Source: Candidatus Omnitrophota bacterium
GTDB lineage: Bacteria > Omnitrophota > Gorgyraeia > Gygaellales > Profunditerraquicolaceae
Assembly (NCBI GenBank): GCA_030693145.1
Contig: JAUYBI010000015.1
Coordinates: forward strand, 8,619 to 72,618
Direction: 5' to 3'
Length of the DNA: 64,000 nt
In this document: one piece after another, positions 7,834-28,825 of the stretch
How positions within the stretch are numbered: the stretch's first letter is position 1
How the letters are laid out: every line of letters begins with the position of its first letter
Translations under genes and position numbers: made by a program
Notes under the pieces: model-generated
Told to the model about the DNA's origin: nothing
Databases searched by the model: none
The model's input: only the letters and a program-made list of their open reading frames with translations

Positions 7834-9207
7834 ATGAGAACGAAAGTAATCGTTGAGCTCGTAGAATCATGCCTGAAAGTCTGCATTGGCCGCAAGATCG
7901 CGGTTGAATTTCTATCTAATACTGAACCTGCCTTTATTTCCGCGGCCTTAAGCAAGATATTAAAACAAAACAGATGCGGCAAGGATTTTGATGTTTTTGT
8001 AGTGTTTAACCGCAATAAAATAACCGTGCGCCGCGTAGAACTGCCTTCGCAAGACCCCAAGGAAATCGAACAGATGCTGGGCTTGTATCTTATGCGCCAG
8101 ATACCTTATCAGAAAGAGGAGGTTTGCTGGTCATACCAGAATTTAGGGTTTGATGGCATAAGTAACAGCCATCTGATCTTAGCCGTGGTTTTAAAAAATG
8201 TTTTCAAGAACATTGTCAGTTCTTTTGTTCCGGTAAATATTCTTCCCGAAGCTATTTTAATGAGCTCTCAGGGGTTGATCTATTATGTAGTTGATGCCTG
8301 CAGAAATAAAATTGATTTGCCAAATTCGTATATGATTTTAGATATTGATACAAATTACAGCGATTTGGTTTTGGTGTATAATCAAAAATTGGGCTCTAGC
8401 GTCGTAATCCCCCAAGGCGCTGAGCAGCTGCAGGACCCTTTGGAAAAAGAAAAATTTGCCGCGGAATTTAAGCAGGCCCTGGGGGCTTTAAATAATGAGA
8501 TACCGGATGCCCGTTGTGAGAAAATATTTTTAACCGGCTCAGCGAGTTCTTTAGTATTGTTTGTGGAAAATATTTCAGCCCAGGATTTTAATTTGAAGGC
8601 CCAGTATCTTTCTTTTAAGGAATATGATAATTTCCTGGCCCATAGCTTAAAAGACATTTCTTTATCCGCGATATTGGGTTTTAGCACCCAGGTGGCCAAG
8701 GATGACCTTAAATTTATTCTTCCGGAAATCCAGATCAAGAAGGAGATGAAGCTTAAGTTAAAGCAATTAATGATCTTGGGAGTGAGCCTGATCTATATTT
8801 TAATTATGTTGGGCGGGATTGCCCTAGTCCGGCTGGCTCAGCGGCAAGCATATGCTTTGAATTTAAAAAATAGGGTTGCATCTTTAGGCAAGGATGTCAA
8901 AGAGCTGGAGGATATTACCAGTAAGTTAAAGATTGCCCGGCAATACGCGGATGCTAAATCCTCGGCGTTAACTTATCTTAACGGTTTGAACCGCTTGTGC
9001 CCGGATAATATTATTATTACCAATTATAATTGGGAATTAGGCAAGCCGTTTACCATTAGAGGTTATGCCCAGGCAATTCCGGATATTTTAGATTTTACCA
9101 ATACCCTGGGAAATACGGAAACCTTTAAAGGCGCGCAGAACCGTTATACGCGTAGAAGGAAATTAAAAGACAAAGATGTGATCGATTTTGAGATTTTTGT
9201 AAAATGA
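7834..9207 (+). CDS. GspL-like / PilM-PilN fusion-like assembly protein
   Basis: 457 aa. A cytoplasmic region of about 300 aa with an actin-like (PilM-like) flavour, one TM helix (LMILGVSLIYILIMLGGIALV), then a periplasmic coiled-coil domain. Sits in the gspE-F-.-G operon. Confidence 0.5.
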   Translation: MRTKVIVELVESCLKVCIGRKIAVEFLSNTEPAFISAALSKILKQNRCGKDFDVFVVFNRNKITVRRVELPSQDPKEIEQMLGLYLMRQIPYQKEEVCWSYQNLGFDGISNSHLILAVVLKNVFKNIVSSFVPVNILPEAILMSSQGLIYYVVDACRNKIDLPNSYMILDIDTNYSDLVLVYNQKLGSSVVIPQGAEQLQDPLEKEKFAAEFKQALGALNNEIPDARCEKIFLTGSASSLVLFVENISAQDFNLKAQYLSFKEYDNFLAHSLKDISLSAILGFSTQVAKDDLKFILPEIQIKKEMKLKLKQLMILGVSLIYILIMLGGIALVRLAQRQAYALNLKNRVASLGKDVKELEDITSKLKIARQYADAKSSALTYLNGLNRLCPDNIIITNYNWELGKPFTIRGYAQAIPDILDFTNTLGNTETFKGAQNRYTRRRKLKDKDVIDFEIFVK

Positions 9208-9734
9208 GAAAATTAAATAACAAGGAAAAAATATTAGCAGCTGCGATCGGGGCCCTGTTGATTTTGCTGGCGCTTAAGGTTTTTGTTTTGGGCCCGATTT
9301 ATGATAAGACGGGTATTTATTCCAGCGAGATTGAACAGGCCAAAGTAACGATCCGCAAATATACGGCCTTAGAGCATAACCGCATGGAGATCCTCAAGGC
9401 CCAAAAACAGATTGAAGGGTATTCCAGCCTCAAGGGCTCGGATGAAGATAAGTCCGCGATGGTGATGAGCAAACTGGAAGCCGAGGCCAGAAGGTCTAAG
9501 CTGCAGATATTGGATATGAACTCCACCGGGGTGACTAAGGTTAAAGGCGGGGTAACTCTTTACCGGGTTAATTTAAGTGCTGAGGGCCAGTTAAAAGATT
9601 TTCTGGATTTTATTTCCGGGATTGAGGGGGCAAATATCCTGTTGCAGGTGGAGAAGATTACTTTAGCGGTTAAGGGTGAAAATACCGGATTATTAAAAAT
9701 TGATGTGGTGATTTTAGGAGTCGCTTTTGCTTAA
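9204..9734 (+). CDS. GspM/PilO-like bitopic inner-membrane protein
   Basis: 176 aa. N-terminal TM helix followed by a periplasmic domain. Its start overlaps the upstream stop (ATGA). Operon position after the GspL-like gene. Confidence 0.4.
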   Translation: MRKLNNKEKILAAAIGALLILLALKVFVLGPIYDKTGIYSSEIEQAKVTIRKYTALEHNRMEILKAQKQIEGYSSLKGSDEDKSAMVMSKLEAEARRSKLQILDMNSTGVTKVKGGVTLYRVNLSAEGQLKDFLDFISGIEGANILLQVEKITLAVKGENTGLLKIDVVILGVAFA

Positions 9735-9859
9735 TAAGCAGGGGAGGTTGAAACCTCCCCTACAGCTGTTAATAATCAACTATGGAGGATACTTTTGCTT
9801 AATGAGTAGGGGAGGTTTAAACCTCCCCTACAGCTGTTGATAATCAACTAGGGAGGATA
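9724..9859. repeat. 68-bp tandem duplication, each unit holding a PalA copy (GCAGGGGAGGTTGAAACC.. and GTAGGGGAGGTTTAAACC..) plus a CAGCTGTT(A/G)ATAATCAACTA tail
   Basis: The two units, 9724-9791 and 9792-9859, differ at about 5 positions. The first unit includes the gspM-like stop codon. Confidence 0.8.
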
Positions 9860-9861
9860 CA

Positions 9862-10260
9862 ATGAAGCGAGGTTTTACTTTAATTGAGCTGATGCTCGTG
9901 GTTATTATTATCGGCGTTTTATCGGCGATGGTTGTGCCGCGGCTTGCCGGAAGGAGCGAGCAGGCGCGTATACAAGCGGCAAAAACGGATATTAATTCCA
10001 GTATCCCGCTGGCGCTTGACCTCTATGAAATGGATACGGGCCATTATCCGGAGCTGCTGGATTACCTCAGGATTAATTCGGGGTTAGGCGCGGAAAGCTG
10101 GCGCGGGCCATATTTGAAGAAAAAACCCATGGATCCCTGGAATAAGCCGTATAGCTATAAATCCCCGGGTGAACATAATCAGGATGGTTATGATCTTTTT
10201 TCTTCCGGCAGTGATGGGCAGCCGGGGACAACGGATGATATTGTAAACTGGGGTGAGTAA
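9862..10260 (+). CDS. gspG: Major pseudopilin, type II secretion GspG
   Basis: MKRGFTLIELMLVVIIIGVLSAMVVP prepilin cleavage/methylation N-terminus and the typical GspG C-terminus (GYDLFSSGSDGQPGT.DDIVNW). RBS gggaggat. Confidence 0.85.
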   Translation: MKRGFTLIELMLVVIIIGVLSAMVVPRLAGRSEQARIQAAKTDINSSIPLALDLYEMDTGHYPELLDYLRINSGLGAESWRGPYLKKKPMDPWNKPYSYKSPGEHNQDGYDLFSSGSDGQPGTTDDIVNWGE

Positions 10261-10645
10261 GTTGAAGGGGTTTACATTAGTGGAGATAATGATCAGCGTG
10301 CTTATACTGGGAGTGGGTTTGACCCTGGTGGCCAATTCTTATCTTGTCGCTTTAAAAGGGGTAAATGCCGTTGCCAGTAATCTTGAAGCCTTGAATTTGG
10401 CTAAAGAGAAACTGGAGGCGCTGGAGGTTTTAAGTTTAAAAGACGGTTTGCTTGCTTCTAATACCAGTGAGGCCATAAAAACTCCTGCCAAGAATTATAA
10501 TTTTACGCAGGCAGTCGTGGAGATAACCCAGCCAAAAGTTTTGGCTGAGCACCTCGTGCAGGCCTGCTTAACGCTCAACTGGCAGGAACAAAATTCCGTA
10601 AAAAATGTTACCATTTCTACGTATCTATCCAAGCAAAAAAAATAA
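10253..10645 (+). CDS. Minor pseudopilin (GspH/GspI-like)
   Basis: GTG start. N-terminus KGFTLVEIMISVLILGVG is a prepilin-type motif. 130 aa. Confidence 0.6.
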   Translation: MSKLKGFTLVEIMISVLILGVGLTLVANSYLVALKGVNAVASNLEALNLAKEKLEALEVLSLKDGLLASNTSEAIKTPAKNYNFTQAVVEITQPKVLAEHLVQACLTLNWQEQNSVKNVTISTYLSKQKK

Positions 10646-11207
10646 ATTAAACTCAGGCGCTTTTACTTTGGTTGAGCTGCTGATCGCTGTTTCTATCTTC
10701 TCTGTCGTCAGTATTGCCATTTATTCGACTTTTAGTTCAGGGGCCGCTATTTTGCGCCGGGTAAAAAATATTGACCTTGCCCAACAAAGGATTTTACTCA
10801 AAACTGAAAGATTTTCCCGCGAGTTAAGGGAACAGGCCGTTTATAAAAAAAAGTTATTTTCAGGAACCAAAACAAAAATTATTTTTCCGGGAAATTCTGA
10901 TTATCTTCCCTGCCGGATAACTTATTATTATGACCCCTCCTCTTTTTGCCTGATGCGCGTCGTGGACAAACTAAGCGCAATCATCACCCCGGAGGGGAAA
11001 GTGGATGCGGAATTAAAATCAAAGCCGCAGGTTTTTTTATCCTCAATTAAAGAAGCAAATTTTTCCTATCTCTTTCTGGATTTAAAGAAGAATGTATATA
11101 GCTGGACAGAGGAATGGCGGCAAGATTATCTTCCTCTGGCGGTTAAGCTCACTATTATTAGCGAAAATTATGAACATGCCTCGACAATATTTTTACCCAC
11201 AGCATAA
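10605..11207 (+). CDS. Minor pseudopilin (GspJ-like), prepilin-type N-terminal domain
   Basis: SGAFTLVELLIAVSIFSVV prepilin-like motif. The leader before Gly is unusually long and the start codon is uncertain. About 180-200 aa. Confidence 0.45.
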   Translation: MLPFLRIYPSKKNKLNSGAFTLVELLIAVSIFSVVSIAIYSTFSSGAAILRRVKNIDLAQQRILLKTERFSRELREQAVYKKKLFSGTKTKIIFPGNSDYLPCRITYYYDPSSFCLMRVVDKLSAIITPEGKVDAELKSKPQVFLSSIKEANFSYLFLDLKKNVYSWTEEWRQDYLPLAVKLTIISENYEHASTIFLPTA

Positions 11208-12081
11208 TCAAGCAAGTATCCTGGTGGTTTGTCTTTGGGTGATCATGATCCTTTCCATGCTGGGCATGGGCCTGACCGGCCTGGTTTTTCAGGAGATAAA
11301 GTTTGCTAAGGTTTATCAGCGGATAAGTTTTTCCCTGCCCGCCGCCAAAGCCGCGCTGAAAACAGTTTTTTACCTGAGGCAGAGCGATCCTACGCCCGGT
11401 TTTGATACTTTTGAGGAGCTGGTAGAAGAAAATACTTGGGTTTTGTGCGCGGATAATTCCTATAAATATTATTTCGCGGATAAAAATAATTCCGCGGACG
11501 GGATTGAGGTTATTGACGAAGGCGCGTTGATTAATTTGAATACTGCCTCCCTGGATGTGCTGAAAAGGCTGCCGGGGATGGATGAGGATCTGGGGGAAAG
11601 TATCGTTAATTCCGGGGTGCGGCCGCTTAGTTCAATTCATGAAGTATTTTTGATTGAAGGTATGAGTAAGGATAAATTTATACTTTTTAAAGACTTAGTT
11701 ACTATATATGGAACAGGCAAGATCAATATTAATACCGCCAGCAAAGCGGTGTTATTAGCTTTGGGTTTGGATAATGAATTAGCAGGGGCGATTTTGCGTT
11801 TTCGGCAGGAATATAAGATCAAGAATCCTGATCCGGAATCTACCGAGGACTTAGGGTATGGTTTTTCCAGTGTGAATAAAATAATTGATGACTTAAGGAG
11901 TTTTACTTTTTTGGGTTTAAGGCAGGAGCAGGATCTCCTGGTGCTGCTTTCTGTATTCGACGTAAAGAGCGAGTACCTGCGCTTTAATATTATCCCTTAC
12001 TCCGGCGGCAGGGAGGGGCTGCACTACAGCATTGTTATTCATCCCGCAACTAAAAAGCTTCTTTCCTGGAACGAGTATTGA
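11170..12081 (+). CDS. gspK: Type II secretion minor pseudopilin GspK
   Basis: Two helix-hairpin-helix NINTAS repeats (INLNTASLDVLKRLPGM, ININTASKAVLLALGL) typical of GspK. N-terminal TM helix. The ATG at 11170 (MNMPRQ..) is preferred over the track start at 11092, which overlaps the previous gene by 115 nt. Confidence 0.7.
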   Translation: MNMPRQYFYPQHNQASILVVCLWVIMILSMLGMGLTGLVFQEIKFAKVYQRISFSLPAAKAALKTVFYLRQSDPTPGFDTFEELVEENTWVLCADNSYKYYFADKNNSADGIEVIDEGALINLNTASLDVLKRLPGMDEDLGESIVNSGVRPLSSIHEVFLIEGMSKDKFILFKDLVTIYGTGKININTASKAVLLALGLDNELAGAILRFRQEYKIKNPDPESTEDLGYGFSSVNKIIDDLRSFTFLGLRQEQDLLVLLSVFDVKSEYLRFNIIPYSGGREGLHYSIVIHPATKKLLSWNEY

Positions 12082-12100: not shown

Positions 12101-12185
12101 GATTAACAATAGTAGGGTGGGTTTAAACCTTGGTTAACAATAGTAGGGTGGGTTTAAACCCACCCTACTATTGTTAACCAAGGTT
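12101..12185. repeat. One-and-a-half PalA T-variant copies. 12130-12181 is a 52-bp perfect palindrome (TTGGTTAACAATAGTAGGGTGGGTTTAAACCCACCCTACTATTGTTAACCAA)
   Basis: Read directly. Preceded by an extra left half, TTAACAATAGTAGGGTGGGTTTAAACC. Confidence 0.85.
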
Positions 12186-12240
12186 TGTTATACAGTCGGA
12201 GATTAATTGACTTGACAAAGGAGCCTATCTTTACTAAAAT

Positions 12241-12348: not shown

Positions 12349-12618
12349 ATGGTTTGGGAAGCAGCGACTGAAAGCAAGTTTAAGGTCTTAATTTCTAAGA
12401 TCCCGATATTCCATCGGCGGATTACCGAATCCGTAGTTAGGCGTCAAGCTGAAGAGATTGCCGCCAGGCGTAATGCATCTGGAGTCCAAGAGCAGGATGT
12501 GGTGGCGGCTTTTTTTTCGGATGTTCCCTCGCCATTTTACAGTATGATGGTCCGCCTGCTCGGGCAAAATGGGTTTGATTATAAAAAGTACGGTTTTCCT
12601 AAAAACATTAAAAAATAA
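12349..12618 (+). CDS. Small PCP_red-domain protein (protochlorophyllide-reductase 57 kDa C-terminal-domain-like), function unknown
   Basis: 89 aa. W..A...K....KIPIF.RR......R..AEE.A motif resembling the Pfam PCP_red domain. Directly precedes the oxidoreductase gene. Confidence 0.45.
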   Translation: MVWEAATESKFKVLISKIPIFHRRITESVVRRQAEEIAARRNASGVQEQDVVAAFFSDVPSPFYSMMVRLLGQNGFDYKKYGFPKNIKK

Positions 12619-13622
12619 TGCGGATTGCGGTTATTGGTGCCGGAGCCATAGGTTGTTTAGTCGCGGGTTACCTTAAAGAAAAAGGCGAAGAGGTAACTTT
12701 AGTCGGGCATGGCCATACAGTTAAGGCGATTCATGAGCATGGTGTCGCTATCTCCGGGGCCAGGGGAAGTTTTAAGGTGCCGGTGAGCATTGCCGACACC
12801 TTAAACTATATTCCGGATTTAGTAATTTTAACCACTAAAACGCAAAATATTGATTCGGCTTTAGCGGATAGCGCGCATTTAATACAAAACTCTTTGTTGC
12901 TCACCACGCAAAATGGCGTGCAGGCGGATAAGTTGGCGGCAAAATACCTGCCTGCCGAAAAGATTATTTCCAGCATCGTGATGTTCGGCGCGACCAGCTT
13001 AGAAAGCGGCAAGGTGGTGCATAATTTTGAAGGCAGCTGGATAATCGGCAGCCTTTTTAATTCCCACCCTACGGAATCCCTGATTTCTTTAAGCTTGGTT
13101 TTAGACAAGGCCTTTCCTGTGATTATCAGCCAGGATATGCAGGGAATGAAATATTTGAAAATTTTTGTCAATGCTAATAATTGCCTGCCGGCGATTATCG
13201 GCAAGAGCATGCAGGAAGTTTTTAGCGATTTAACGATGAGCCGGATCAGTATCGCTATCTGGAAAGAGGCTTTTGAGGTTTTTGATAAAATCGGGATAGA
13301 TTTAGTTTCTCTTCCCGGGTTTCCGGTGGAGAACCTCACCAAATTTACTACCATGCCCAGCGCGCATGCCGCGGAGATCTTTTCGGCCATGATGAGGAAT
13401 CTAAGCAAAGACCCGTTGTACGGCTCAATATTGCAGAGCATCATGCGCGGTAAACTTTCGGAGATTGATTATATTAACGGTGAATTCGTGCGCCTGGCTG
13501 AGGAAAACAATCTGCAGGCGCCATTGAATAAAATTTTGGTGGACATGGTGCATCAGGTAGAAGCAAACCGAAGATTTTTTAGTAAAGAAGATTTAATCCA
13601 GAAGACTAAGGAGCTGGTTTAG
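12618..13622 (+). CDS. 2-dehydropantoate 2-reductase family oxidoreductase (ApbA/PanE-like)
   Basis: N-terminal MRIAVIGAGAIGCLVAGYL Rossmann motif, DLVILTTK, and a C-terminal ApbA_C-like region (SEIDYINGEFV). 334 aa. Confidence 0.75.
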   Translation: MRIAVIGAGAIGCLVAGYLKEKGEEVTLVGHGHTVKAIHEHGVAISGARGSFKVPVSIADTLNYIPDLVILTTKTQNIDSALADSAHLIQNSLLLTTQNGVQADKLAAKYLPAEKIISSIVMFGATSLESGKVVHNFEGSWIIGSLFNSHPTESLISLSLVLDKAFPVIISQDMQGMKYLKIFVNANNCLPAIIGKSMQEVFSDLTMSRISIAIWKEAFEVFDKIGIDLVSLPGFPVENLTKFTTMPSAHAAEIFSAMMRNLSKDPLYGSILQSIMRGKLSEIDYINGEFVRLAEENNLQAPLNKILVDMVHQVEANRRFFSKEDLIQKTKELV

Positions 13623-13625
13623 ATA

Positions 13626-14213
13626 ATGAATGAAGTAAATACCCCCTTTCCGCGGCTAAGGCTTACCGTAACCCAAGTTATGGGTGTCTGTTACCATGGT
13701 TACAAAATTGGCGATGAGATTATTTTAGAAGATTTTACGCATGGGCCTAAACATTTCTGTTTAGGATTGGCGCACGCTCTTTTTCCGGTAATCTACGCTT
13801 TAAGCTTTGGCGCAAAATTTGGTTTTCGTGATAATCAGCGCTCGCTGTTGGTGACCTGTCCGGATGGAGGCAAGCTGGAGTTTAAAGCCGAGATTTTGGA
13901 TAAACAGGGTAAGCTTGAGGAAATTCCGCGCGACCCGGAACATAAGGGGCCGCAGCCTAAGAAAATGATTCTGGAAGTAGTGCAATCCAAGGGCAAGTGC
14001 ACTTTTGGATATAAAGTAGGTGATAAATGGGAAACGCAGGGTTTAAAATGTATTCCGGATTTTTGCGGAGCGGCATTTCACACTGCTTTTCCGGCTTTGT
14101 TTGCTTTAAATTTTGGAGCCCAGTTTTTCTTTATGCCCAATCCGGATACAATTGATACGGTTACTTGCCCGGATGGCGGGAATATTATTTTTAAAGTGAA
14201 AAGGATAGATTAA
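13626..14213 (+). CDS. Tandem-duplicated TIGR04076-like domain protein, function unknown
   Basis: Two internal repeats. Each carries C.HG.KIGDE ... FC.G.AHA.FP...AL.FGA.F ... CPDGG..F, the pattern I recall for the TIGR04076 small-protein family. Confidence 0.45.
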   Translation: MNEVNTPFPRLRLTVTQVMGVCYHGYKIGDEIILEDFTHGPKHFCLGLAHALFPVIYALSFGAKFGFRDNQRSLLVTCPDGGKLEFKAEILDKQGKLEEIPRDPEHKGPQPKKMILEVVQSKGKCTFGYKVGDKWETQGLKCIPDFCGAAFHTAFPALFALNFGAQFFFMPNPDTIDTVTCPDGGNIIFKVKRID

Positions 14214-14219
14214 AGTAGA

Positions 14220-14259
14220 GTAGGGGAGGTTTAAACCTCCCCTACAGTTGTGGATAACT
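14220..14259. repeat. PalA G-variant with the CAGTTGTGGATAACT tail
   Basis: Perfect 26-bp palindrome at 14220-14245. The tail carries TGTGGATAA. Confidence 0.85.
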
Positions 14260-14283
14260 CACAGTGTGAAAGGAAAAAGAGAA

Positions 14284-15543
14284 GTGATTAAACGCAGGGT
14301 AGTGATTACCGGCATTGGGGTAATTTCGCCTAATGGCATCGGTAAAAAGAATGCCTGGGAAGGTTTTGCCGGCGGAAAATCCGGGGTACGTTTAGTTGAT
14401 GGTTTTGATGTCTCAGTATTTAATACTAAAATTGCCGCGGAGGTGCGCGATTTTGATCCTTTTAAATTAGGCTTAAGCCATGAAGAAGCCATGCGCATGG
14501 ATCGCTATGTGCAATTTGGCGTAGCTGCCGGTAAAATGGCAGTGGAAGACAGTAAGTTGGACTTTTCTCAAGAAGATGTTCAGCGCATCGGCGTTTGTTT
14601 AGCTAATGCTATCTGCGGGACCAAATATATGGAAGAAGAGTTTGCTTTGGTTACTGACGACGGGAAAAAACCCATAGATCCGAGTTTAGTGCGGCCGGAT
14701 TTATATGATGCGGCAATGTTTAATACTCCGTCAATTGAAATCAGCGCGCGTTTCGGCTTAAAAGGAAGTTGTAATACTATTTCCACCGGATGCACCGCAG
14801 GCACGGATTCCTTAGGTTTTGGCCTGGAAAGTATTCAGGATGGGTCGTTGGATGTGATGATTTGCGGAGCAGCCGAAGCGCCGCTTACTCCGATTACCTT
14901 TGGCGCTTTTGACGTGGTAAATGTCTTATCAGTGCATAATGATGAGCCGCAAAAAGCATCGCGCCCCTTTGATAATAAAAGGGATGGGTTTGTTTTAGGA
15001 GAGGGGGCCGGGATACTGGTGCTGGAGGAATTAAATCACGCCTTAAAGCGGAATGCCCCGATTTATTGCGAGATTTTGGGTTTCGGCACCAGTTGTAATG
15101 CTTTTCATATGACGGATCTTCCTTCTGATGGACGGGCAATGGAGACCTGTATTGCCCTGGCCTTAAAAGATGCGCAGGTTAAACCCTCTGAAATTGATTA
15201 TATCAACGCGCATGGCTCAAGTACGCGGATGAATGATATTTTTGAAAGTAATGCTTATAAAGCGATTTTTGACGAAGCTGCCTATCAGCTGCCTATCAGT
15301 TCATTTAAATCTATGATCGGCCACCCTCTGGCTGCGGCTAATGCTATTGAGATGACGATTGCCGCGATGATTTTTGAGAAAAATATTCTTCCTCCGACGA
15401 TAAACCAAGAGGAAAAAGACCCGCAGTGTGACCTGTATTATATTCCCAATGAAGCGATACAGAAAAAAGTAAATATTATTTTAAAAACCAGCAGTGGTTT
15501 TTCAGGGATACACTCTTCGCTGGTTTTGAAACGATTTAAATAA
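14284..15543 (+). CDS. Beta-ketoacyl synthase (FabF/KS-alpha-like), catalytic Cys-His-His present
   Basis: VVITGIGVISPNG. Active-site ISTGCTAGTD. Conserved His residues at HGSSTRMND and SMIGHPLAAA. The track start (14248, TTG) lies inside the palindromic repeat. The GTG at 14284 gives MIKRRVVITG. Confidence 0.85.
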   Translation: MIKRRVVITGIGVISPNGIGKKNAWEGFAGGKSGVRLVDGFDVSVFNTKIAAEVRDFDPFKLGLSHEEAMRMDRYVQFGVAAGKMAVEDSKLDFSQEDVQRIGVCLANAICGTKYMEEEFALVTDDGKKPIDPSLVRPDLYDAAMFNTPSIEISARFGLKGSCNTISTGCTAGTDSLGFGLESIQDGSLDVMICGAAEAPLTPITFGAFDVVNVLSVHNDEPQKASRPFDNKRDGFVLGEGAGILVLEELNHALKRNAPIYCEILGFGTSCNAFHMTDLPSDGRAMETCIALALKDAQVKPSEIDYINAHGSSTRMNDIFESNAYKAIFDEAAYQLPISSFKSMIGHPLAAANAIEMTIAAMIFEKNILPPTINQEEKDPQCDLYYIPNEAIQKKVNIILKTSSGFSGIHSSLVLKRFK

Positions 15544-15611
15544 AGGGGACGGTTCTATTTTTTATAGAGCCTGTTTGATAAAAAAATAGAACCGTCCCCG
15601 GGATTTTAACT
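15543..15611. repeat. HpB hairpin with GGGATTTTAACT tail between the KS and CLF-like genes
   Basis: AAAGGGGACGGTTCTATTTTTT..AAAAAATAGAACCGTCCCC-GGGATTTT, ending at the ATG. Confidence 0.8.
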
Positions 15612-16841
15612 ATGAATAAAATTGCTATCACGGGTATCGGCGTAGTCAGCCCCTCAGGGATCGGCAAGCGGCAATTCTGGGCGAATATTAAAAGCGGACG
15701 CTCGTTCATTAAAAAGATTACGCGTTTTGATGCCAGCCTTTATCCTGCGCATATTGCCGGGCAAATTGATGACCTGGAAAAGTATAGCCATATCTCCGAG
15801 AGGCTGCTGAAGAAAATTGATGCTTTTTCACATATGGCGCTGGTGGCCGCAGAGCTGGCTTTGCAGGATGCCGGGATTGATATTAAGAATGAAGATCCGA
15901 ACCTGGTGGGTATCTTTTTAGGTAATGCTATTGGCGGCTGGCTTTACGCGGAGACAGAGTTAAGGGACCTGTATTTAGAGGGGCGCCAGGGTGTCTCACC
16001 TTACATGGCTAGCGCCTGGTTTCCGGCGGCACCTCAAGGCCAGGTTTCAATTTATTATGGGATTAAAGGTTTTAGCAAGACCGTAGTCAGCGACCGGGCC
16101 AGCTCCCTGATGGCGCTGGGCTATGCCCGGAAAGTTTTGGCTAAAAATAAACTAAACATGATTTTAGCCGGAGGGATGGAGGCGCCGGTTACTCCGTATG
16201 CTTTATTATGTTGTAATACCTATGGGGCGCTCTCTAAAAACAATGATCATCCGGCGGCAGCTTATCGTCCATTTGACCAGGAGCGCAGCGGTTTTGTGAT
16301 TGGCGAAGGCGCGGGGATTGTGGTCATGGAAAGTATTCAACGCGCCAGGGGCCGGGGCGCGAATATTTTAGGCTTAATTAGCGGCTATGGCACTTCTTGT
16401 GACGGGGTAAATAGAATTAATTGCGCTAGCGACGGGAAGGAACTGGCGCGGGCGATAAATATGGCGCTGGCGGATGCCCAAGTGGCTGCTGAAGAAATTG
16501 GTTATATCAGTTTAGACGGCTTGGCAGTGGAGCTTTGGGATAACTCCGAAATTAAAGCGCTAGAATTAGTTTTTGGGGAGAACTTAAAGAAAATTCCTGT
16601 AAGCTGCCCAAAATCTATGTTCGGGAATTTGCTGGGGGCTTCCGGTGTTTTAGATATGATTATCGCGCTTTTAACTATGGAGCATAGTTTAGTCCCTCCG
16701 ATATTGAATTTAGAGAAGCCGGCTTTAAACAGTTTAAATTATGTGGCTAAAGAGTCCAGGGAATATAAGGTAAGTAAATCTTTGATTATTTCACGCGGAA
16801 GAGGCGGGATTAATTCGGTTTTGGTTGTTGAGAAATTATAA
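15612..16841 (+). CDS. Ketosynthase-like partner lacking the catalytic triad (chain-length-factor / KS-beta-like)
   Basis: KS fold (IAITGIGVVSPSG). At the active-site position the sequence is VVSDRASSLMALG, with Arg in place of Cys. Neither conserved His is present (LDGLAVELWD, SMFGNLLGAS). Confidence 0.75.
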   Translation: MNKIAITGIGVVSPSGIGKRQFWANIKSGRSFIKKITRFDASLYPAHIAGQIDDLEKYSHISERLLKKIDAFSHMALVAAELALQDAGIDIKNEDPNLVGIFLGNAIGGWLYAETELRDLYLEGRQGVSPYMASAWFPAAPQGQVSIYYGIKGFSKTVVSDRASSLMALGYARKVLAKNKLNMILAGGMEAPVTPYALLCCNTYGALSKNNDHPAAAYRPFDQERSGFVIGEGAGIVVMESIQRARGRGANILGLISGYGTSCDGVNRINCASDGKELARAINMALADAQVAAEEIGYISLDGLAVELWDNSEIKALELVFGENLKKIPVSCPKSMFGNLLGASGVLDMIIALLTMEHSLVPPILNLEKPALNSLNYVAKESREYKVSKSLIISRGRGGINSVLVVEKL

Positions 16842-16842
16842 G

Positions 16843-16882
16843 GCAGGGGAGGTTTAAACCTCCCCATGTTTTAAAACGGAGG
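16843..16882. repeat. Truncated PalA (GCAGGGGAGGTTTAAACCTCCCC) fused to the ATGTTTTAAAACGGAGG RBS module
   Basis: A chimera of the two repeat families directly upstream of the radical SAM gene start. Confidence 0.7.
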
Positions 16883-16886
16883 AAAT

Positions 16887-18347
16887 ATGAAAATACTATT
16901 TGTTATGCCGAAAGTCGGTGCTTGGGCAACGCATGGAACACATCGTTCTCCGAATCAGTTATACGCGCATTGGGCGGCTTATGCGCGCGAAAGAGGCTAT
17001 GAGGATGTTTCTGTCTTAGACGGTAAAGCAGATCAAATTCCGATGGACGCTCTGATTGAACAAGTAAAACTTAAAAATCCGGATATCGTGGTGATGGGGG
17101 AGCAGCTGCACGGTTATGGCGGATATGGAGTTCTGCGGCATTTTAAAGATGCGGCCCTGGGGATTAAAAAAGCGCTGCCGAGAACAAAAATAATTCTCGG
17201 TGGGTTATGGTATTCCGCAATGCCGGTGCCGACATTAGAGGAGAATCCCGCGGTTGATTTTGTGGTGATGGGGGAAGAAGAATCTTTCGGAGATTTGATT
17301 GAGGCCATCGATAAAAATAAGCCTTTTGGCGACGTGGGCGGAGTCACTTCCCGCGTTGCCGGGGAAATTGTCATGGGCCCCCATAAGCCGCTGATGGAAG
17401 ATTTAGACAAGCTTCCTCTGCCGGCCTATGATTTATTTCCGATGGATAAATATGTAGGCCACACCTATTGGAAACCATTTGTGGATATCGTTACTTCGCG
17501 GGGATGCCCTTCAGCGTGCACCTTTTGTTATGAATGGGATCAGTTTGACCCGCGTTCACCTTCAGATTTCTTGAAATGGCGGGCGAAGTCTCCGGAAAGA
17601 GTTATGGAGGAGCTGAATCTTTTGCATCGAAAGTACGGAGTTAAAGTCGTGGTTATCCAGGACGACAATTTTAATGTCGACCCTAAAAGAGTACAGAAGT
17701 TCTGTGAACTTAAAAAAGCATCGAACAATCCGATTAAGTGGGTATCTTTAGGCCGGGCTATTGATTGGGTTAATTGTGAATCCATCCTGCCCCTGATGAA
17801 GGAAAATGGTTTATTCATGGGTGTTTTCGGTATTGAGGTTACCACGCAATCAGAGCTCAAGCGCATCGCTAAAGGTATTACCATTGACCAGATTAAGAAA
17901 ACCATAGAGATCCTGCGCAAAAATGATATCGCGATTGTCGCCGATATCATGATGGGTTTTGATTATGACACCGAAGCGATTATCAAGCAGCGTTTTGAGT
18001 TTACGGATCAGGTGGATCCGGATATTCTTTGGGTGGGCTATGTTACTCCTGCCCCGAATTCGCCGATGTGGAGGATTGCTTTAAAGAAAAACTGGATTGA
18101 TCCTAAAAAAGTAGATTTTAGCCGGTGGGATTTCTTGCATCCGGTAATTCCTACGGACCATCTGTCTACGGAAGATCTCGGACGCCTGGGTTCCTGGTGT
18201 ATGCGTGAATTTTTTTCCAAGCCCGGGCGCATTAATAGAATTATGGAAAGTGATTTTGATCCATTAGCTAAGCTTTGCTTTCAGGACGTGATGGCCGGAG
18301 TTGGTAAATGGGAAGCAGCCGCAACCAAGGGCGAAGTGCAGATATAG
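16887..18347 (+). CDS. B12-binding-domain radical SAM enzyme (class B radical SAM)
   Basis: N-terminal cobalamin-binding-like domain. Radical SAM core with a CPSACTFC (CxxxCxxC) cluster motif. 486 aa. Confidence 0.8.
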   Translation: MKILFVMPKVGAWATHGTHRSPNQLYAHWAAYARERGYEDVSVLDGKADQIPMDALIEQVKLKNPDIVVMGEQLHGYGGYGVLRHFKDAALGIKKALPRTKIILGGLWYSAMPVPTLEENPAVDFVVMGEEESFGDLIEAIDKNKPFGDVGGVTSRVAGEIVMGPHKPLMEDLDKLPLPAYDLFPMDKYVGHTYWKPFVDIVTSRGCPSACTFCYEWDQFDPRSPSDFLKWRAKSPERVMEELNLLHRKYGVKVVVIQDDNFNVDPKRVQKFCELKKASNNPIKWVSLGRAIDWVNCESILPLMKENGLFMGVFGIEVTTQSELKRIAKGITIDQIKKTIEILRKNDIAIVADIMMGFDYDTEAIIKQRFEFTDQVDPDILWVGYVTPAPNSPMWRIALKKNWIDPKKVDFSRWDFLHPVIPTDHLSTEDLGRLGSWCMREFFSKPGRINRIMESDFDPLAKLCFQDVMAGVGKWEAAATKGEVQI

Positions 18348-18352
18348 AATTA

Positions 18353-18430
18353 AATCAAGGGGACGGTTCTATTTTTCCGTCGCCCAACTGGTTTGAAAAA
18401 CAGAACCGTCCCCATGTTTTAAAACGGAGG
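18353..18430. repeat. HpB hairpin plus the conserved ATGTTTTAAAACGGAGG RBS module upstream of the ACP gene
   Basis: AATCAAGGGGACGGTTCTATTTTTCCGTCGC...CAGAACCGTCCCC-ATGTTTTAAAACGGAGGATAAATG. Confidence 0.8.
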
Positions 18431-18434
18431 ATAA

Positions 18435-18671
18435 ATGGATACAAAAATAAAAATAAAAGAAGTATTGAGCAGTTTATTAAAAGTAAAAATTGAGGAATTA
18501 AAAGACGGCTCTACTTTAATTGACAGCATCGGCGTGGATTCTACGGAGATGGTGGAATCGGTGATTGCCCTGGAAAAATCATTCGGGGTGAAGCTTAGCC
18601 CCAAAGAGATTACCAAGAACTCAACGATTAACGATATCGTAAATAATATCCAGTCAAAGTTAAATAAATAA
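18435..18671 (+). CDS. Acyl carrier protein
   Basis: 78 aa. Phosphopantetheine attachment motif LIDSIGVDSTEMVE (DSxGxDS). Confidence 0.8.
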   Translation: MDTKIKIKEVLSSLLKVKIEELKDGSTLIDSIGVDSTEMVESVIALEKSFGVKLSPKEITKNSTINDIVNNIQSKLNK

Positions 18672-18673
18672 AG

Positions 18674-18711
18674 TTATCCACAACCGTAGGGTGGGTTTAA
18701 ACCCACCCTAC
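18674..18711. repeat. PalA T-variant in inverted tail orientation (TTATCCACAACC-GTAGGGTGGGTTTAAACCCACCCTAC)
   Basis: Perfect palindrome. TTATCCACA precedes it. Confidence 0.85.
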
Positions 18712-18740
18712 AGGGGTAAATAAAAAGAGGAGCCAGCCGG

Positions 18741-19541
18741 GTGAAGATAGTTGATTTAAGCCTGCCCATCGATGAGTCGGCTTTTGAGGTGCACAAGGTG
18801 GATATTGAACGGATAACGCATCGAGCCGGTGTAGATAAATTTAATCGCGTGATTATGGGCAAGGCCCTGTGGGGTAAAATAAAATACGCCTTAGGACAGC
18901 GCATCGTGAAAAAAGAACAGCTGCCCGACGAAGAATTTCTCTCCTTAGAGATCGTGCACGCTCCGGTGCATATCGGAACACACCTGGATTATTCTTTCCA
19001 TTACGGCTCAAAATCAGAGAACCGCGCCTCCAAGACCGCGGATGAGATCCCGTTAGAATATTGTTATCAGGATGGGGTTAAACTTGATTTTAGGCATAAA
19101 AAACCCAATGAGGTAATCAAGGCAGCGGATATAGAAAGCGCTCTAAAGAAGACAAATTATCAACTTAAGCCTTTAGATATTGTATTATTACAGACGGCAG
19201 CGGATAAGCTTTATGGCGGGCCAAAATATTTTTCCGATTATCCTGGCGTAGATCCCTCAGCTATAGAATATCTTTTAGATAAAGGAATTAAGATCTTTGG
19301 CGTAGACACGATGGGGATTGACCGGCCGTATAGATTTATGCTCAGTGAATTTATTAAGACCAAAGATCCAAAGACATTTTATCCAGCGCATTTTTATGGC
19401 CGTAAAAGAGAATTTATCCATATCGAGCGGCTGGCGAACCTGGAAAAAATACCGGATTCCGGTTTTAAGATTCTTTGTTTTCCGATACGCATAAAGAATA
19501 CTGGCGCAGCTTGGGCCAGAGTAGTTGCTCTTTTAGATTAA
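18741..19541 (+). CDS. Cyclase-family protein (Pfam Cyclase / kynurenine-formamidase-like fold)
   Basis: GTG start after RBS aagaggag. HAPVHIGTHLDYSFHYG matches the HxGTHxDxPxH metal-binding motif of the putative cyclase family. Confidence 0.65.
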   Translation: MKIVDLSLPIDESAFEVHKVDIERITHRAGVDKFNRVIMGKALWGKIKYALGQRIVKKEQLPDEEFLSLEIVHAPVHIGTHLDYSFHYGSKSENRASKTADEIPLEYCYQDGVKLDFRHKKPNEVIKAADIESALKKTNYQLKPLDIVLLQTAADKLYGGPKYFSDYPGVDPSAIEYLLDKGIKIFGVDTMGIDRPYRFMLSEFIKTKDPKTFYPAHFYGRKREFIHIERLANLEKIPDSGFKILCFPIRIKNTGAAWARVVALLD

Positions 19542-19548
19542 AATTAAA

Positions 19549-19626
19549 AATCAAGGGGACGGTTCTGTTTTTCCGTCGCTTAATCTAATTGAAAAATAGA
19601 ACCGTCCCCATGTTTTAAAACGGAGG
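19549..19626. repeat. HpB hairpin plus the ATGTTTTAAAACGGAGG module upstream of the SRPBCC gene
   Basis: About 85% identical to the 18353 copy, including the loop TTTTTCCGTCGC. Confidence 0.8.
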
Positions 19627-19631
19627 GACAA

Positions 19632-20072
19632 ATGGGCCACACGTGTAACTCGATTATTATTAATGCGCCTTATGGTTTAGTTTTTGATATTTCTAATGAT
19701 ATTACGCGTTGGACGGAGTTATTCGGTACGGAATATAAAAAAGCAGAGGTAGTGAAGAAAGAATCCAATAAGATTACTTTTCGCCTGACGGATGAAGATG
19801 ATAAATCCTGGCAATCCTGGCGGCTGCTTTTTAAGGATAAGTATTTTGCCTATGCGGAAAGGGAGGAGCCCAAATTTCCTTTTAAATATATGAAGATCAT
19901 CTGGCTTTATACGCCTAAACCAGAAGGAATAGAAATGGCCTGGATCCAACATTTTGAGATGGAGCAAAAGGCTAAGTTTAATGATGCGCAGATTGAAGGG
20001 TTTATTAATGAAGGCTCGCAGGATAATTTGAAGATTTTTAAAGAGATTATTGAAAAAGAAGCGCTGAAGTGA
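19632..20072 (+). CDS. SRPBCC-fold protein (polyketide cyclase/dehydrase-like, Polyketide_cyc2-like)
   Basis: 146 aa. N-terminal IINAPYGLVFDISNDITRWTELF resembles the I.AP.E.VW..L.D.E.WP.W start of Polyketide_cyc2/SRPBCC proteins. Confidence 0.45.
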   Translation: MGHTCNSIIINAPYGLVFDISNDITRWTELFGTEYKKAEVVKKESNKITFRLTDEDDKSWQSWRLLFKDKYFAYAEREEPKFPFKYMKIIWLYTPKPEGIEMAWIQHFEMEQKAKFNDAQIEGFINEGSQDNLKIFKEIIEKEALK

Positions 20073-21199
20073 AAAAGGCTACATTTAGTATACTTTGCCT
20101 GGAAGGAGCGGTTTTATCATTTAATGTGGCCGCTGCCGCAGCCCTGATCCCGTCAATTGCCGCGGATTTTGCTCTTTCTCAGTTTTTTGTGGGTAAGATA
20201 ATTTGGCTATATATGCTCCCCTATGGACTGGCGGCATTTCTTTATGGGCCGCTGGTGCGCGCTTTTGATGCGCGGAAAGTAGAGCTGGCCTGTATCTTCT
20301 TATTCTCCCTGGCTAATCTTCTGGCAGGTTTAGCTCCGGATATTCATACGCTTTTTGCAGCCAGGTTTCTCATGGGGATTTTTGGCGCCTCGGTAATTCC
20401 GCTGGGTTTAATTCTGATTGCTAAACATATCCGGCAGAATAAGCGCGGAGGCTATGTGGGAATATTTTTTGGCTGGACCTTTGTTGCTTCTTTACTGGGG
20501 TTATTTTTAAGCGGGTTAATTCCCTGGCGCTGGATATTTATAATTCCGGCAGTTTTAGGGCTGGTTCTGTGGGTTTTTATGTATTTTTATTTGCCTAGTT
20601 TTAAAGAAGGCCTGGGGGTTTTTCGTTTCGGGTATCTGGAAGCATTTAAAGATAAGAAAGTAGCGAGGATCTTTCTTTACATCTTTCTGATTAGTTTAAT
20701 TTATCATGGGGTGCAGCAGTGGCTGGGGGTTTATTTTTCTACGCAGCTTTTCTTAAACCAGTTTACGATTAGCATGATGATTACCTTAACCAGCTTGAGC
20801 GGAATATTCGGGGAATTTTGGGGAGGACATCTTGCGGATCAGCTAGGCAGGCCCAGAGTAGTAAGCCTGGGTATTATTGCCATGGTTCTGGGCATCCTTT
20901 TGCTTTTATTAAAATTGCCTTTAACCTTACTCGGCCTGGCGATGATCATTTGGGGCTTGGGTTGGACCTTTAATCATGTAGGCTTGGCGACGATGTTAAC
21001 GGACCTGCCGCCAGAATTCTTAAATGAAGCGGCTAGCTTAAATAGCGGAGTGCGTTTTATTGCCGGCGGGCTGGGGGTAAGTTTAGGCGGCCTGTTGATG
21101 CTTAAAAGTTTTAATTTTGGTTTTGTTATTTTTGGCAGCGCGCTGGTTTTGCTTTTATTTTCAGGCAGAGTGTTTAAATTTAAACAACCGGCAAATTGA
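20069..21199 (+). CDS. MFS transporter
   Basis: 376 aa. About 12 predicted TM helices with MFS-like loops (DQLGRPRV). The GTG start overlaps the upstream stop (GTGA). Confidence 0.75.
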   Translation: MKKATFSILCLEGAVLSFNVAAAAALIPSIAADFALSQFFVGKIIWLYMLPYGLAAFLYGPLVRAFDARKVELACIFLFSLANLLAGLAPDIHTLFAARFLMGIFGASVIPLGLILIAKHIRQNKRGGYVGIFFGWTFVASLLGLFLSGLIPWRWIFIIPAVLGLVLWVFMYFYLPSFKEGLGVFRFGYLEAFKDKKVARIFLYIFLISLIYHGVQQWLGVYFSTQLFLNQFTISMMITLTSLSGIFGEFWGGHLADQLGRPRVVSLGIIAMVLGILLLLLKLPLTLLGLAMIIWGLGWTFNHVGLATMLTDLPPEFLNEAASLNSGVRFIAGGLGVSLGGLLMLKSFNFGFVIFGSALVLLLFSGRVFKFKQPAN

Positions 21200-21239
21200 C
21201 CGGGGCCGTTGTAGAGAGAATTTCAAAGGAGGATTTATC

Positions 21240-22016: not shown

Positions 22017-22025
22017 AAAGGAAAT

Positions 22026-27267: not shown

Positions 27268-27534
27268 ATGATGCAAAGTAAAGAGAATGAATATGTTACG
27301 ATACCTGAATTGGCAAAGATACTTGGTTTAAGCAGGATCGCTGTTTTTAAAAAGGTAAAGAAAGGCGAGATTAAGGCCATTAAGATAGGAAAAACCTACG
27401 GAATTTCCAGAAAGCACGTAGAAAGCCTATTAGGGAAGGTTTTGGGCGAAGATGAGAAGAAAGAAATTGACCTGGCGGTAAAAAGAACTGTTAGCGAATA
27501 CGGCCAAACATTGAAGCTTTTGGGTAAAGATTAG
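27268..27534 (+). CDS. HTH DNA-binding protein (excisionase/MerR-like HTH), putative antitoxin partner of Doc
   Basis: 88 aa. VTIPELAKILGLSRIAVFKKVKKGEIKAIKIG helix-turn-helix. Its stop overlaps the doc start. Confidence 0.55.
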   Translation: MMQSKENEYVTIPELAKILGLSRIAVFKKVKKGEIKAIKIGKTYGISRKHVESLLGKVLGEDEKKEIDLAVKRTVSEYGQTLKLLGKD

Positions 27535-28741: not shown

Positions 28742-28744
28742 AAT

Positions 28745-28818: not shown

Positions 28819-28825
28819 GACGGAC

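Follow-up and report, generated by a model that had tools for sequence, protein, structure and literature searches.

The window analysed here is a 64,000-nucleotide stretch of contig JAUYBI010000015.1 from a Candidatus Omnitrophota bacterium. Within it, an operon-like block of 11 kb (12349-23356) encodes a type II polyketide-synthase-like system in the order s89-KPR-T4076x2-KS-CLF-B12 rSAM-ACP-cyclase-SRPBCC-(MFS)-SDR-h139-Amidohydro_2, the gene order at the 5' end thus being s89, KPR, T4076x2, KS. The features of the block and its left border are as follows.

12132-12179, + strand: terminator-like palindrome with a 20-bp stem and a REP-like GGTTTAAACC core; ends the upstream pseudopilin operon
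12212-12240, + strand: promoter-like site TTGACA-17-TAAAAT, 11/12 consensus matches, the best of the region; candidate cluster promoter by consensus match only
12349-12618, + strand: s89, 89 aa, apparent distant relative of DUF2621 and PCP_red
12618-13622, + strand: KPR, ketopantoate-reductase-family NAD(P)H oxidoreductase with ApbA and ApbA_C domains
13626-14213, + strand: T4076x2, tandem TIGR04076 protein of 195 aa (NCBIfam TIGR04076 match)
14220-14245, no strand: REP-like 26-nt perfect palindrome GTAGGGGAGGTTTAAACCTCCCCTAC inside the T4076-KS spacer
14284-15543, + strand: KS, ketosynthase; start at GTG 14284 by homology, the ORF opening at TTG 14248
15612-16841, + strand: CLF-like second KS-fold protein, catalytic triad absent
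16887-18347, + strand: rSAM, B12-binding radical SAM enzyme, best match BchE
18435-18671, + strand: ACP, acyl carrier protein with a PP-binding domain
18741-19541, + strand: PF04199 'putative cyclase' family protein with a Cyclase domain (Pfam)
19632-20072, + strand: SRPBCC / Polyketide_cyc protein of the aromatase/cyclase type (Pfam)
20069-21199, + strand: putative MFS-type transporter, labelled from homologous genes in locus L001 and not from a scan of its own
21237-22016, + strand: SDR, short-chain dehydrogenase of the ketoreductase type with an adh_short/KR domain
22026-22445, + strand: h139, conserved 139-aa protein with no Pfam match
22445-23356, + strand: Amidohydro_2 family protein, last gene of the conserved block

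A first-pass annotation of this DNA had placed s89 and T4076x2 at the head of the cluster, and the left border agrees with this: the hairpin at 12132-12179 and the promoter-like site at 12212-12240 both precede s89, and synteny with relatives begins exactly at s89. The annotation had also put both small genes directly upstream of the reductase gene, an order that is incorrect, as KPR (12618-13622) sits between them. Translational coupling, which it extended to the KS genes, holds only within the first three genes. The stop codon of s89 and the start codon of KPR share one base (TAATG), and KPR is separated from T4076x2 by 3 nt, with AAGGAG upstream, but T4076x2 and KS are uncoupled here, lying 70 nt apart when measured to GTG 14284 and 34 nt apart when measured to the first possible TTG. 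In most related genomes the T4076-KS spacer is only 3-4 nt, in contrast to the 70 nt and palindrome found here; s89-KPR spacings in relatives are mostly -4 to +7 nt and KPR-T4076 spacings mostly 1-5 nt. The MFS gene is found in 34 of 46 related loci. An Rfam search of the cluster region returned merely spurious sub-threshold matches to miRNA hairpins, and the 20 larger ORFs scanned downstream, to about 48 kb, included only housekeeping genes and no quinone-type genes (e.g. prenyltransferases).

Neither s89 nor T4076x2 is a chance ORF, because each has more than 800 database matches at E <= 0.001 (1030 for s89 and 836 for T4076x2, the best 120 in each case being 75-100% identical). The 195-aa product of 13626-14213 had been called a tandem TIGR04076 protein, and comparison with the NCBIfam model, which had been proposed as a check, is significant (96.5 bits against a cut-off of 33, E 1e-27, two matched stretches); an identical protein is named 'TIGR04076 family protein' by NCBI. 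A family HMM built here places the two domains at approximately residues 10-92 and 111-194. Across 55 single-domain members of TIGR04076 three Cys and one Gly are invariant and a Pro-Asp is near-invariant, and T4076x2 retains these in repeat 1 (C22/C45/C78-P-D) and in repeat 2 (C125/C147/C181-P-D), with the invariant Gly present in both. In the AF2 model (pLDDT 91.6, pTM 0.87) a predicted beta-beta-alpha-beta-beta order is seen twice.

Within TIGR04076, T4076x2 belongs to a sub-clade of its own in which the repeats fall into two differentiated types, 'DFTHxPxHFC' and 'GLKxxxGFCGAAxH', encoded in some lineages by separate genes; unlike TIGR04076 at large, this sub-clade is locked to KS-CLF/ACP clusters. 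A word-index profile search with the single-domain members found only 31 proteins, and a PDB sequence search with T4076x2 gave nothing meaningful. The likeness of T4076x2 to the N-terminal domain of the XdhC/CoxI family (PDB 2we7, 3on5) comes with a sequence identity of just 10-15% and no sequence-level match in PDB. In the literature searched, TIGR04076 / IPR023811 is named only as annotation, and no functional study was found.

The label of PCP_red mini-protein, given to s89 in the first-pass annotation, stands only in part. The ORF at 12349-12618 is real, but its match to PCP_red (PF08369), 17.7 bits with E 0.0037, is below the gathering score of 32.5, and DUF2621 (PF11084) is the better, yet likewise sub-threshold, match (21.2 bits, E 3e-4, gathering score 27.7), aligned to positions 56-135 only of the 139-position model. 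These weak matches recur over the family: among 36 s89 family members, DUF2621 is matched at E<0.01 by 36/36 (best 1.4e-6) and PCP_red by 22/36 (best 3.3e-5), just one other Pfam match being found, in a single member, and some homologues are named DUF2621 by NCBI. A remote relationship is therefore consistent across the family and a 'PCP_red domain' is not established; judged by these profile matches, s89 is a distant relative of both families.

The s89 protein lacks Cys, has 42 positions that are invariant across the 36 homologues and is predicted to form a four-helix fold (pLDDT 83). Foldseek comparison of the model with PDB gave no significant match (best E-value 0.34); the fold match to 2l09, which we take to be a PCP_red-family protein, is weak, AAA+ lid domains score higher, and the matches are to generic helical bundles. 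PDB sequence searches with s89 and with its family profile gave nothing meaningful, and no functional study of DUF2621 or PF08369 was found in the literature searched. Both s89, as modelled, and PCP_red, the C-terminal helical domain of protochlorophyllide reductase subunit B, are small and all-helical, and the PCP_red consensus presumably resembles the s89 N-terminal motif, of the type W..(E)...KIP.F.R. In contrast to PCP_red and DUF2621, s89 has an extra conserved C-terminal helix, 'PSPFYSMMxRLLxQxGFDYKKYGFP', and it has no counterpart to the first ~55 positions of the DUF2621 model. The cluster also differs from the PCP_red context (BchN/BchB type) in having no nitrogenase-like partner: no Oxidored_nitro gene was found among the Pfam-scanned cluster proteins (all except the MFS ORF at 20069-21199) or in the Pfam-labelled related loci.

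KPR passes the cut-off of the TIGR00745 apbA_panE subfamily (185 bits against 141) and fails all PanE equivalog models (e.g. 146 against 371). The KS retains an intact Cys-His-His triad, with Arg/Asp/Asn at the aligned positions of its CLF-like partner, and discrete ACP, ketoreductase and aromatase/cyclase genes are all present (PP-binding, adh_short/KR, Polyketide_cyc, Cyclase). The radical SAM enzyme scores 204 bits against the BchE model TIGR02026, below the equivalog cut-off of 481, and is therefore BchE-like and not BchE. The Amidohydro_2 family, to which the last gene belongs, includes aromatic-acid decarboxylases. The compound produced is probably a small, reduced aromatic polyketide whose synthesis does not use O2.

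Conservation of the neighbourhood was followed in 80 Omnitrophota species genomes and in 80 diverged metagenome loci, using a genome scan profile built from tandem T4076 proteins only and counting loci with enough flanking sequence. The block from s89 to Amidohydro_2 is conserved across all 80 Omnitrophota species examined: KS lies downstream of T4076x2 in 78/78 loci, KPR upstream of it in 70/70 and the B12 radical SAM gene is present in 33/33, while s89 is present in all 71 loci with enough upstream sequence. The flanks upstream of the 70 KPR-T4076 loci differ. Conservation of T4076x2 itself is high and comparable with that of KS and rSAM, in loci that were chosen by T4076 similarity. In the diverged loci KS follows T4076, which is tandem or split, in 58 of 61; AOR is found upstream of KPR in many, the rSAM gene has moved or is absent in 4 of the 12 that are well covered, and three contain T4076x2 with neither KS nor KPR nearby.

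Rearranged clusters from other lineages (L004, L008, L174 and L175; GC 34-63%) retain the T4076/KS association. Three of them have T4076 together with KS-CLF and without KPR: L004 reads KS-CLF-T4076-ACP-B12 rSAM x2 ... s89-like-B12 rSAM, L175 reads s89-like-T4076x2-KS-CLF, and L174, which has no rSAM, reads KS-CLF-[T4076-ACP fusion]-cyclase-SRPBCC ... DUF362 ... T4076-KSIII. In L008 AOR is translationally coupled to KPR-T4076, L092 has T4076-ferredoxin-AOR, and L091 is rich in radical SAM genes near T4076. Gene fusions join T4076 to ACP (P0299 and P0306), to KPR (P0245) and to Flavin_Reduct (P0313), and in P0320 T4076 repeats are fused to DUF362 and a 2x[4Fe-4S] domain in a gene directly before a B12 rSAM gene. 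In L097, L099, L100, L103 and L112 a Peptidase_U32 protein ends in an s89-like domain, that of L099 passing the DUF2621 gathering score at 29.6 bits; no rSAM gene was found in L112, the best-covered locus of this clade, and no U32 gene in the 64-kb window. Elsewhere an s89-like gene adjoins the rSAM gene (L124, L168, L004), and many diverged loci with an rSAM gene lack s89. The fusions of T4076 with KPR or ACP and of an s89-like domain with U32 link the small proteins to the pathway independently.

With their conserved position in Omnitrophota and these fusions in other genomes, s89 and T4076x2 are conserved members of the polyketide system. The suggestion of the first-pass annotation that they are pathway components is thus upheld, and the association with KS or radical SAM genes that it proposed to look for does recur among homologues; the roles of redox partner or scaffold that it offered as examples are a matter of interpretation.

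The reading that we tentatively prefer, while rating it at somewhat less than an even chance, is that T4076x2 is a redox or metal module tied to the ACP/KS-CLF machinery and s89 a helical adaptor of an oxygen-independent tailoring enzyme, a mechanism that we infer. T4076x2 would be built as a pseudo-dimer, each half being a beta-beta-alpha-beta-beta unit of ~90 aa in which the three invariant Cys and the near-invariant Asp form a putative metal or Fe-S site. It would most likely pass reducing equivalents or hold a redox cofactor, be physically tied to ACP/KS-CLF and draw its input from the NAD(P)H-binding KPR-like reductase that is encoded next to it and at times fused to it, and it may serve the oxygen-independent tailoring of carrier-bound intermediates, which the B12 radical SAM enzyme would perform here and which AOR may accompany in sister clusters. 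The Cys-free s89 could be a four-helix docking or substrate-capping element of the anaerobic oxidising or tailoring enzyme; in a sister clade this domain is built into a Peptidase_U32 protein. The Peptidase_U32 family contains O2-independent hydroxylases (UbiU/UbiV, RlhA, TrhP). Rossmann enzymes of the KPR type are hydride-transfer enzymes without flavin, which makes a relay from NAD(P)H to one-electron carriers through KPR awkward, and a simple one-electron chain from KPR to T4076 is chemically doubtful. The s89 part has to be set beside the rSAM-bearing diverged loci that have no s89, the generic nature of the helical-bundle matches and the empty profile search of PDB, all of which count against an adaptor.

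Several observations on T4076 fit a role in the polyketide synthase core at least as well as that of an electron donor, since T4076 tracks KS and ACP, the rSAM gene moves or is missing, and L174 has no rSAM at all. T4076x2 could then be a subunit of the minimal PKS with a structural or chaperone-like role instead of a redox one, which docks to ACP, stabilises it or tunes the priming or chain length of KS-CLF, with Cys residues that hold structural Zn or of which one serves as a thiol. Its position directly before KS in Omnitrophota and diverged loci, between CLF and ACP in L004, directly after KS-CLF in L174 and, as a second copy, before KSIII in that same locus is what such a subunit would predict, as are the T4076-ACP fusion in two family clusters and a conservation that is comparable with that of KS and rSAM (again in loci picked by T4076 similarity). 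We consider it somewhat unlikely, however, as a domain with the same Cys occurs in non-PKS contexts, with flavin reductase, with DUF362 and ferredoxin, with B12 rSAM and with AOR-ferredoxin. The three diverged tandem copies that have no KS nearby speak against a structural subunit, and, lacking KPR as well, they also count against the redox reading.

A supply of starter units or precursors by s89-KPR-T4076x2, joined in sister clusters by a tungsten-type AOR, is quite unlikely in our estimate. The trio would generate the unit that primes KS by reducing a 2-oxo acid, an acid or an aldehyde, with T4076 as electron carrier or substrate holder, and it does always lie immediately 5' of KS, its genes packed more closely than any others in the operon; enzymes of the KPR family reduce 2-oxo acids, and the AOR gene that is translationally coupled to KPR-T4076 in L008, those often found upstream of KPR in diverged loci and the T4076-ferredoxin-AOR order of L092 would suit such a module. 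Against it, L004, L174 and L175 dispense with KPR while keeping T4076 and KS-CLF, s89 goes with U32 and rSAM in other lineages and not with KPR, and the Omnitrophota cluster has no AOR, acyl-activating enzyme or priming KSIII. The last account, in which KPR is an ordinary PanE that supplies CoA/phosphopantetheine and the small genes are chance neighbours of a PKS cluster, can point to the TIGR00745 score and to pantetheine as the prosthetic group of ACP. It is very improbable and is rejected, since synteny and fusions largely refute it: every PanE equivalog cut-off is failed, 70/70 loci share one arrangement although their upstream flanks differ, KPR-T4076 and T4076-ACP fusions exist, and KS-CLF is again accompanied by the small genes in rearranged clusters without KPR.

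The locus places TIGR04076 and DUF2621-like proteins, which have no assigned function in the literature searched, in a concrete and testable context. Together with its relatives it suggests a type II polyketide synthase of an anaerobe type, with T4076 fused in some cases to ACP or a reductase and a small helical, s89-like domain in some cases to an enzyme of the U32 family. Should T4076 turn out to be a metal redox module, B12 radical SAM enzymes would have a new small electron-transfer domain among their associates. The apparent exchange of BchE-like rSAM for U32 in sister clusters hints at O2-free tailoring of aromatic polyketides, and no functional study of U32 combined with a type II PKS was found in the literature searched. 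A bolder proposal, which we regard as unlikely, is that TIGR04076 is an unrecognised Cys3-Asp Fe-S/metal redox domain that, with the s89 adaptor, equips an O2-independent type II PKS in which B12 rSAM or U32 enzymes replace oxygenases, its product (e.g. quinone-like) being core to a large Omnitrophota clade and not an occasional antibiotic.

Among known systems, the 'ladderane'-type clusters of antiSMASH, which are modelled on anammox bacteria, share with the Omnitrophota cluster a FabF-like KS, an ACP and a B12-binding radical SAM enzyme, and 'ladderane' clusters of unknown function have been reported from Omnitrophota MAGs (PMC9902471). The Omnitrophota cluster differs from this type in having aromatic-polyketide cyclases and no desaturase-type genes, and its rSAM scores 65.8 bits against TIGR04072 (ladderane-associated lipid-biosynthesis B12 radical SAM), far from the cut-off of 360; a ladderane assignment was rejected because of this score and the aromatic cyclases. 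Some genome-mining pipelines call such clusters 'ladderane', and a correct assignment would improve the annotation of a poorly understood, uncultured phylum.

Another likeness is to non-actinobacterial type II PKS such as the anthraquinone (ant) cluster of Photorhabdus. Both have a KS with the triad and a CLF-like partner without it, and they have in common an ACP, an SDR ketoreductase, an SRPBCC aromatase/cyclase and a PF04199 cyclase. To known non-actinobacterial systems the Omnitrophota cluster adds T4076x2, s89, KPR, the B12 radical SAM enzyme and the Amidohydro_2 protein, and its CLF has Arg at the Cys position in place of the classical Gln. Omnitrophica KS-CLF pairs are already included in a catalogue of type II PKS (PMC10132072). 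The cluster is further set apart by its presence in at least 80 Omnitrophota species with very high conservation of protein sequence across them, which is unusual for secondary metabolism.

The window's cluster has the gene content of a type II polyketide-synthase-like system; its genes and flanks are as follows.

7834-12081, upstream operon of type II secretion/type IV pilus-like pseudopilins with N-terminal 'GFTLIELM'-type motifs, adjoining the cluster in only about 12/80 related species loci
12132-12179, 20-bp terminator-like palindrome upstream of s89
12212-12240, best promoter-like site of the region, upstream of s89
12349-12618, + strand, 89-aa open reading frame (s89)
12618-13622, + strand, 334-aa ketopantoate-reductase-family frame (KPR) with ApbA and ApbA_C domains
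13626-14213, + strand, 195-aa tandem TIGR04076 frame (T4076x2)
downstream of T4076x2, ketosynthase (KS) with intact Cys-His-His triad
15612-16841, chain-length-factor-like KS homologue (CLF) with Arg/Asp/Asn at the triad positions
downstream of CLF, B12-binding radical SAM enzyme (rSAM), best match BchE, below cut-off
further downstream, ACP, PF04199 cyclase, SRPBCC aromatase/cyclase-type protein, putative MFS transporter (label carried from the homologous gene in related locus L001), SDR, 139-aa protein (h139) and Amidohydro_2 protein
25745-26780, nucleotidyltransferase/HEPN gene pair, just downstream of the cluster
27534-27956, Fic/DOC gene, just downstream of the cluster
27992-30751, likely methylthioribose-salvage genes (PNP_UDP_1, IF-2B family protein, class II aldolase)

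The gene pair and the Fic/DOC gene look like toxin-antitoxin-type modules, and the class II aldolase has a C-terminal SCP2 lipid-transfer domain.

When genomes were scanned, one for each species, 224 proved to contain relatives; the top 80 are without exception Omnitrophota, some under a placeholder 'Planctomycetales' name. Wherever the contig reaches, these 80 loci have the same order, s89-KPR-T4076x2-KS-CLF-rSAM-ACP-cyclase-SRPBCC-(MFS)-SDR-h139-Amidohydro_2, with KS downstream in 78/78, KPR upstream in 70/70 and rSAM present in 33/33. The upstream pseudopilin gene is common to only about a dozen of them and the two genes 3' of Amidohydro_2 to none, and a distant member has quite different upstream genes. 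Because the internal order is constant but upstream genes are rarely and downstream genes never shared, the conserved block is 12349-23356, and s89, its first gene, does stand at the head of the cluster, as the first-pass annotation proposed. That annotation also placed both small genes directly upstream of the ketopantoate-reductase-family gene and the KS genes; KPR in fact lies between them, and the true order, slightly different from that description, is s89, KPR, T4076x2, KS. Median identities are 90% for rSAM, 86% for KS, 85% for T4076x2 (biased upward, the loci having been picked by T4076 similarity), 70% for s89 and 62.5% for KPR, which in the window scores above the TIGR00745 subfamily cut-off and below every PanE equivalog cut-off. 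Many cluster genomes at >85% identity (L015, L022, L027, L029 and others) are deposited as 'uncultured Planctomycetales bacterium', which looks like placeholder taxonomy for Omnitrophota MAGs.

The first three frames are tightly packed on the + strand: the s89 stop and KPR start overlap by one base, and 3 nt, with AAGGAG upstream, separate KPR from T4076x2. The T4076x2-KS spacer is 70 nt and contains a 26-nt perfect palindrome, an insertion in this genome since relatives usually have 3-4 nt there. It is a member of a REP-like family that occurs 22 times in the window, where 0.15 copies would be expected; sites include 2382, 4787, 9814, 12151, 14228, 16851, 18694, 33789 and 58317. The perfect palindromes read GTAGGG[GT][AG]GGTTTAAACC[TC][CA]CCCTAC, their stems form two variants differing by compensatory changes, the cluster itself contains three copies, and all copies compared with the frame list are intergenic. 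A possible repeated element of leader or processing type occurs at 18352-18437, 19547-19634 and 16862-16889. A stable hairpin of ~60 nt (z -3.7 and -4.2), matching no Rfam family, is followed by a common tail, CCCCAUGUUUUAAAACGGAGG-N5-AUG, 5' of the ACP and SRPBCC genes, and the rSAM gene is preceded by the tail without the hairpin.

The 89-aa protein had been called a PCP_red-domain mini-protein. Its PCP_red score is 17.7 bits, below the threshold of 32.5, and its DUF2621 score, somewhat better, is also below threshold (21.2 against 27.7 bits). When 36 homologues were scanned singly, DUF2621 was matched in 36/36 and PCP_red in 22/36, and the one match to any other domain was in a single member. 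These recurrent matches and sub-threshold scores make s89 a distant relative of both families, and consistently so, but not an established PCP_red member. It has 1030 database relatives at E <= 0.001, the best 120 of which are 75-100% identical and, where named, from Omnitrophota; 42 of its 89 positions are invariant in the 36 homologues. Its model has four helices (pLDDT 83), with which Foldseek found nothing significant, 2l09 having the highest probability.

The other assignment, a tandem TIGR04076 protein, is confirmed by 96.5 bits (cut-off 33) over two matched stretches, and an identical NCBI entry is named 'TIGR04076 family protein [Candidatus Omnitrophota bacterium]'. There are 836 relatives at E <= 0.001, the best 120 being 75-100% identical and Omnitrophota where named. 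The family is small (228 representative clusters among 1.84 billion proteins) and comprises single, double and 3-5-fold repeat proteins; the single-domain members (n=55) have in common three invariant Cys, one Gly and a near-invariant Pro-Asp. A confident AF2 model of T4076x2 (pLDDT 91.6, pTM 0.87) has two beta-beta-alpha-beta-beta units, in each of which the invariant Cys lie just after strand 1, at the helix N-terminus and at the end of strand 3, a predicted placement compatible with a single common site.

Metagenomes scanned with the repeat-2 type yielded 80 diverged loci, which keep a core of KPR-T4076-KS-CLF-ACP-cyclase-SRPBCC, with KS downstream in 58/61; three have T4076x2 without KS or KPR. 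The tandem is sometimes two separate genes, a tungsten-type aldehyde:ferredoxin oxidoreductase (AOR) is often inserted directly upstream of KPR-T4076 (L008 1-1884, overlapping KPR by 4 nt; many of L094-L173), and rSAM is shifted upstream or downstream, or missing. Several diverged lineages have a conserved ~167-aa protein without Pfam match between the s89-like gene and KPR or AOR (L112 5417-5920; homologues in L097, L099, L100, L103, L104, L124, L147, L153, L159, L162, L163, L167 and L168), absent from the window's cluster. Association of T4076 with cluster genes persists in rearranged clusters of other lineages (GC 34-63%):

L004, KS-CLF-T4076-ACP-B12 rSAM-B12 rSAM ... s89-like-B12 rSAM
L175, PPTase-s89-like-T4076x2-KS-CLF
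L174, KS-CLF-[T4076 fused to ACP, 8001-8510]-cyclase-SRPBCC-PPTase-CMD-DUF362 ...; second T4076 (15161-15460) directly before KSIII

The low-GC (34%) type II PKS cluster of L174 has DUF362, DUF169 and CMD genes and lacks rSAM and KPR.

Pfam scans of unusually long TIGR04076 members revealed fusions to ACP (two clusters of members), KPR and Flavin_Reduct, and one protein combining T4076 repeats, DUF362 and a two-cluster ferredoxin domain, its gene directly before a B12 rSAM gene. Among single-domain members, one belongs to a cluster with many radical SAM genes, one adjoins ferredoxin and AOR, two have DUF72 and a radical SAM gene nearby, and one has uninformative neighbours. In five related loci (L097, L099, L100, L103 and L112, e.g. 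L112 4065-5489) a 474-aa Peptidase_U32 protein carries an s89/DUF2621-like domain at its C-terminus (residues ~400-463); in L099 this domain scores above the DUF2621 gathering score, and no B12 rSAM gene was found in L112, the best covered of the five. The s89-like gene adjoins rSAM in L124, L168 and L004, and s89 went undetected in many diverged loci that do have rSAM.

Synteny, rearranged co-occurrence and fusions together make it well supported that both proteins are cluster components, which bears out their earlier description as pathway components. For T4076x2 the preferred reading is a Cys3(+Asp) metal or Fe-S module that would act between the carrier/KS machinery and redox enzymes, because the domain is fused to proteins of hydride or electron input (KPR, flavin reductase, DUF362-ferredoxin) as well as to ACP, and is repeatedly found next to B12 radical SAM and AOR-ferredoxin genes. 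The chief alternative, a non-redox partner of the core PKS or ACP, is favoured by the way T4076 tracks KS/ACP and not rSAM. For s89, the U32 fusion and rSAM adjacency argue for an adaptor of an oxygen-independent tailoring enzyme, the reading favoured here, and in sister clusters the fusion protein may stand in, as a non-orthologous replacement, for the anaerobic tailoring enzyme. The U32 family includes the O2-independent hydroxylases UbiU/UbiV, RlhA and TrhP, BchE is an anaerobic oxidative cyclase, and the substrate pocket of BchB is capped by a PCP_red domain; these analogies lend plausibility to the apparent swap between rSAM and U32 and to s89 acting as a cap or docking element.

Both proteins are already catalogued under family names. 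To judge from the searchable literature, their consistent place in a widespread anaerobe-type type II PKS cluster is new, as are the fusions linking T4076 with ACP and with reductases and the s89 domain with U32 enzymes. Omnitrophica KS-CLF pairs are in a published catalogue (PMC10132072), and antiSMASH-based 'ladderane' clusters, function unassigned there, have been described in Omnitrophota MAGs (PMC9902471). The window's rSAM differs from the ladderane-associated model, scoring 65.8 bits against a cut-off of 360. Classical actinobacterial chain length factors have Gln at the catalytic-Cys position, whereas the window's CLF has Arg, with Asp and Asn replacing the two triad His.
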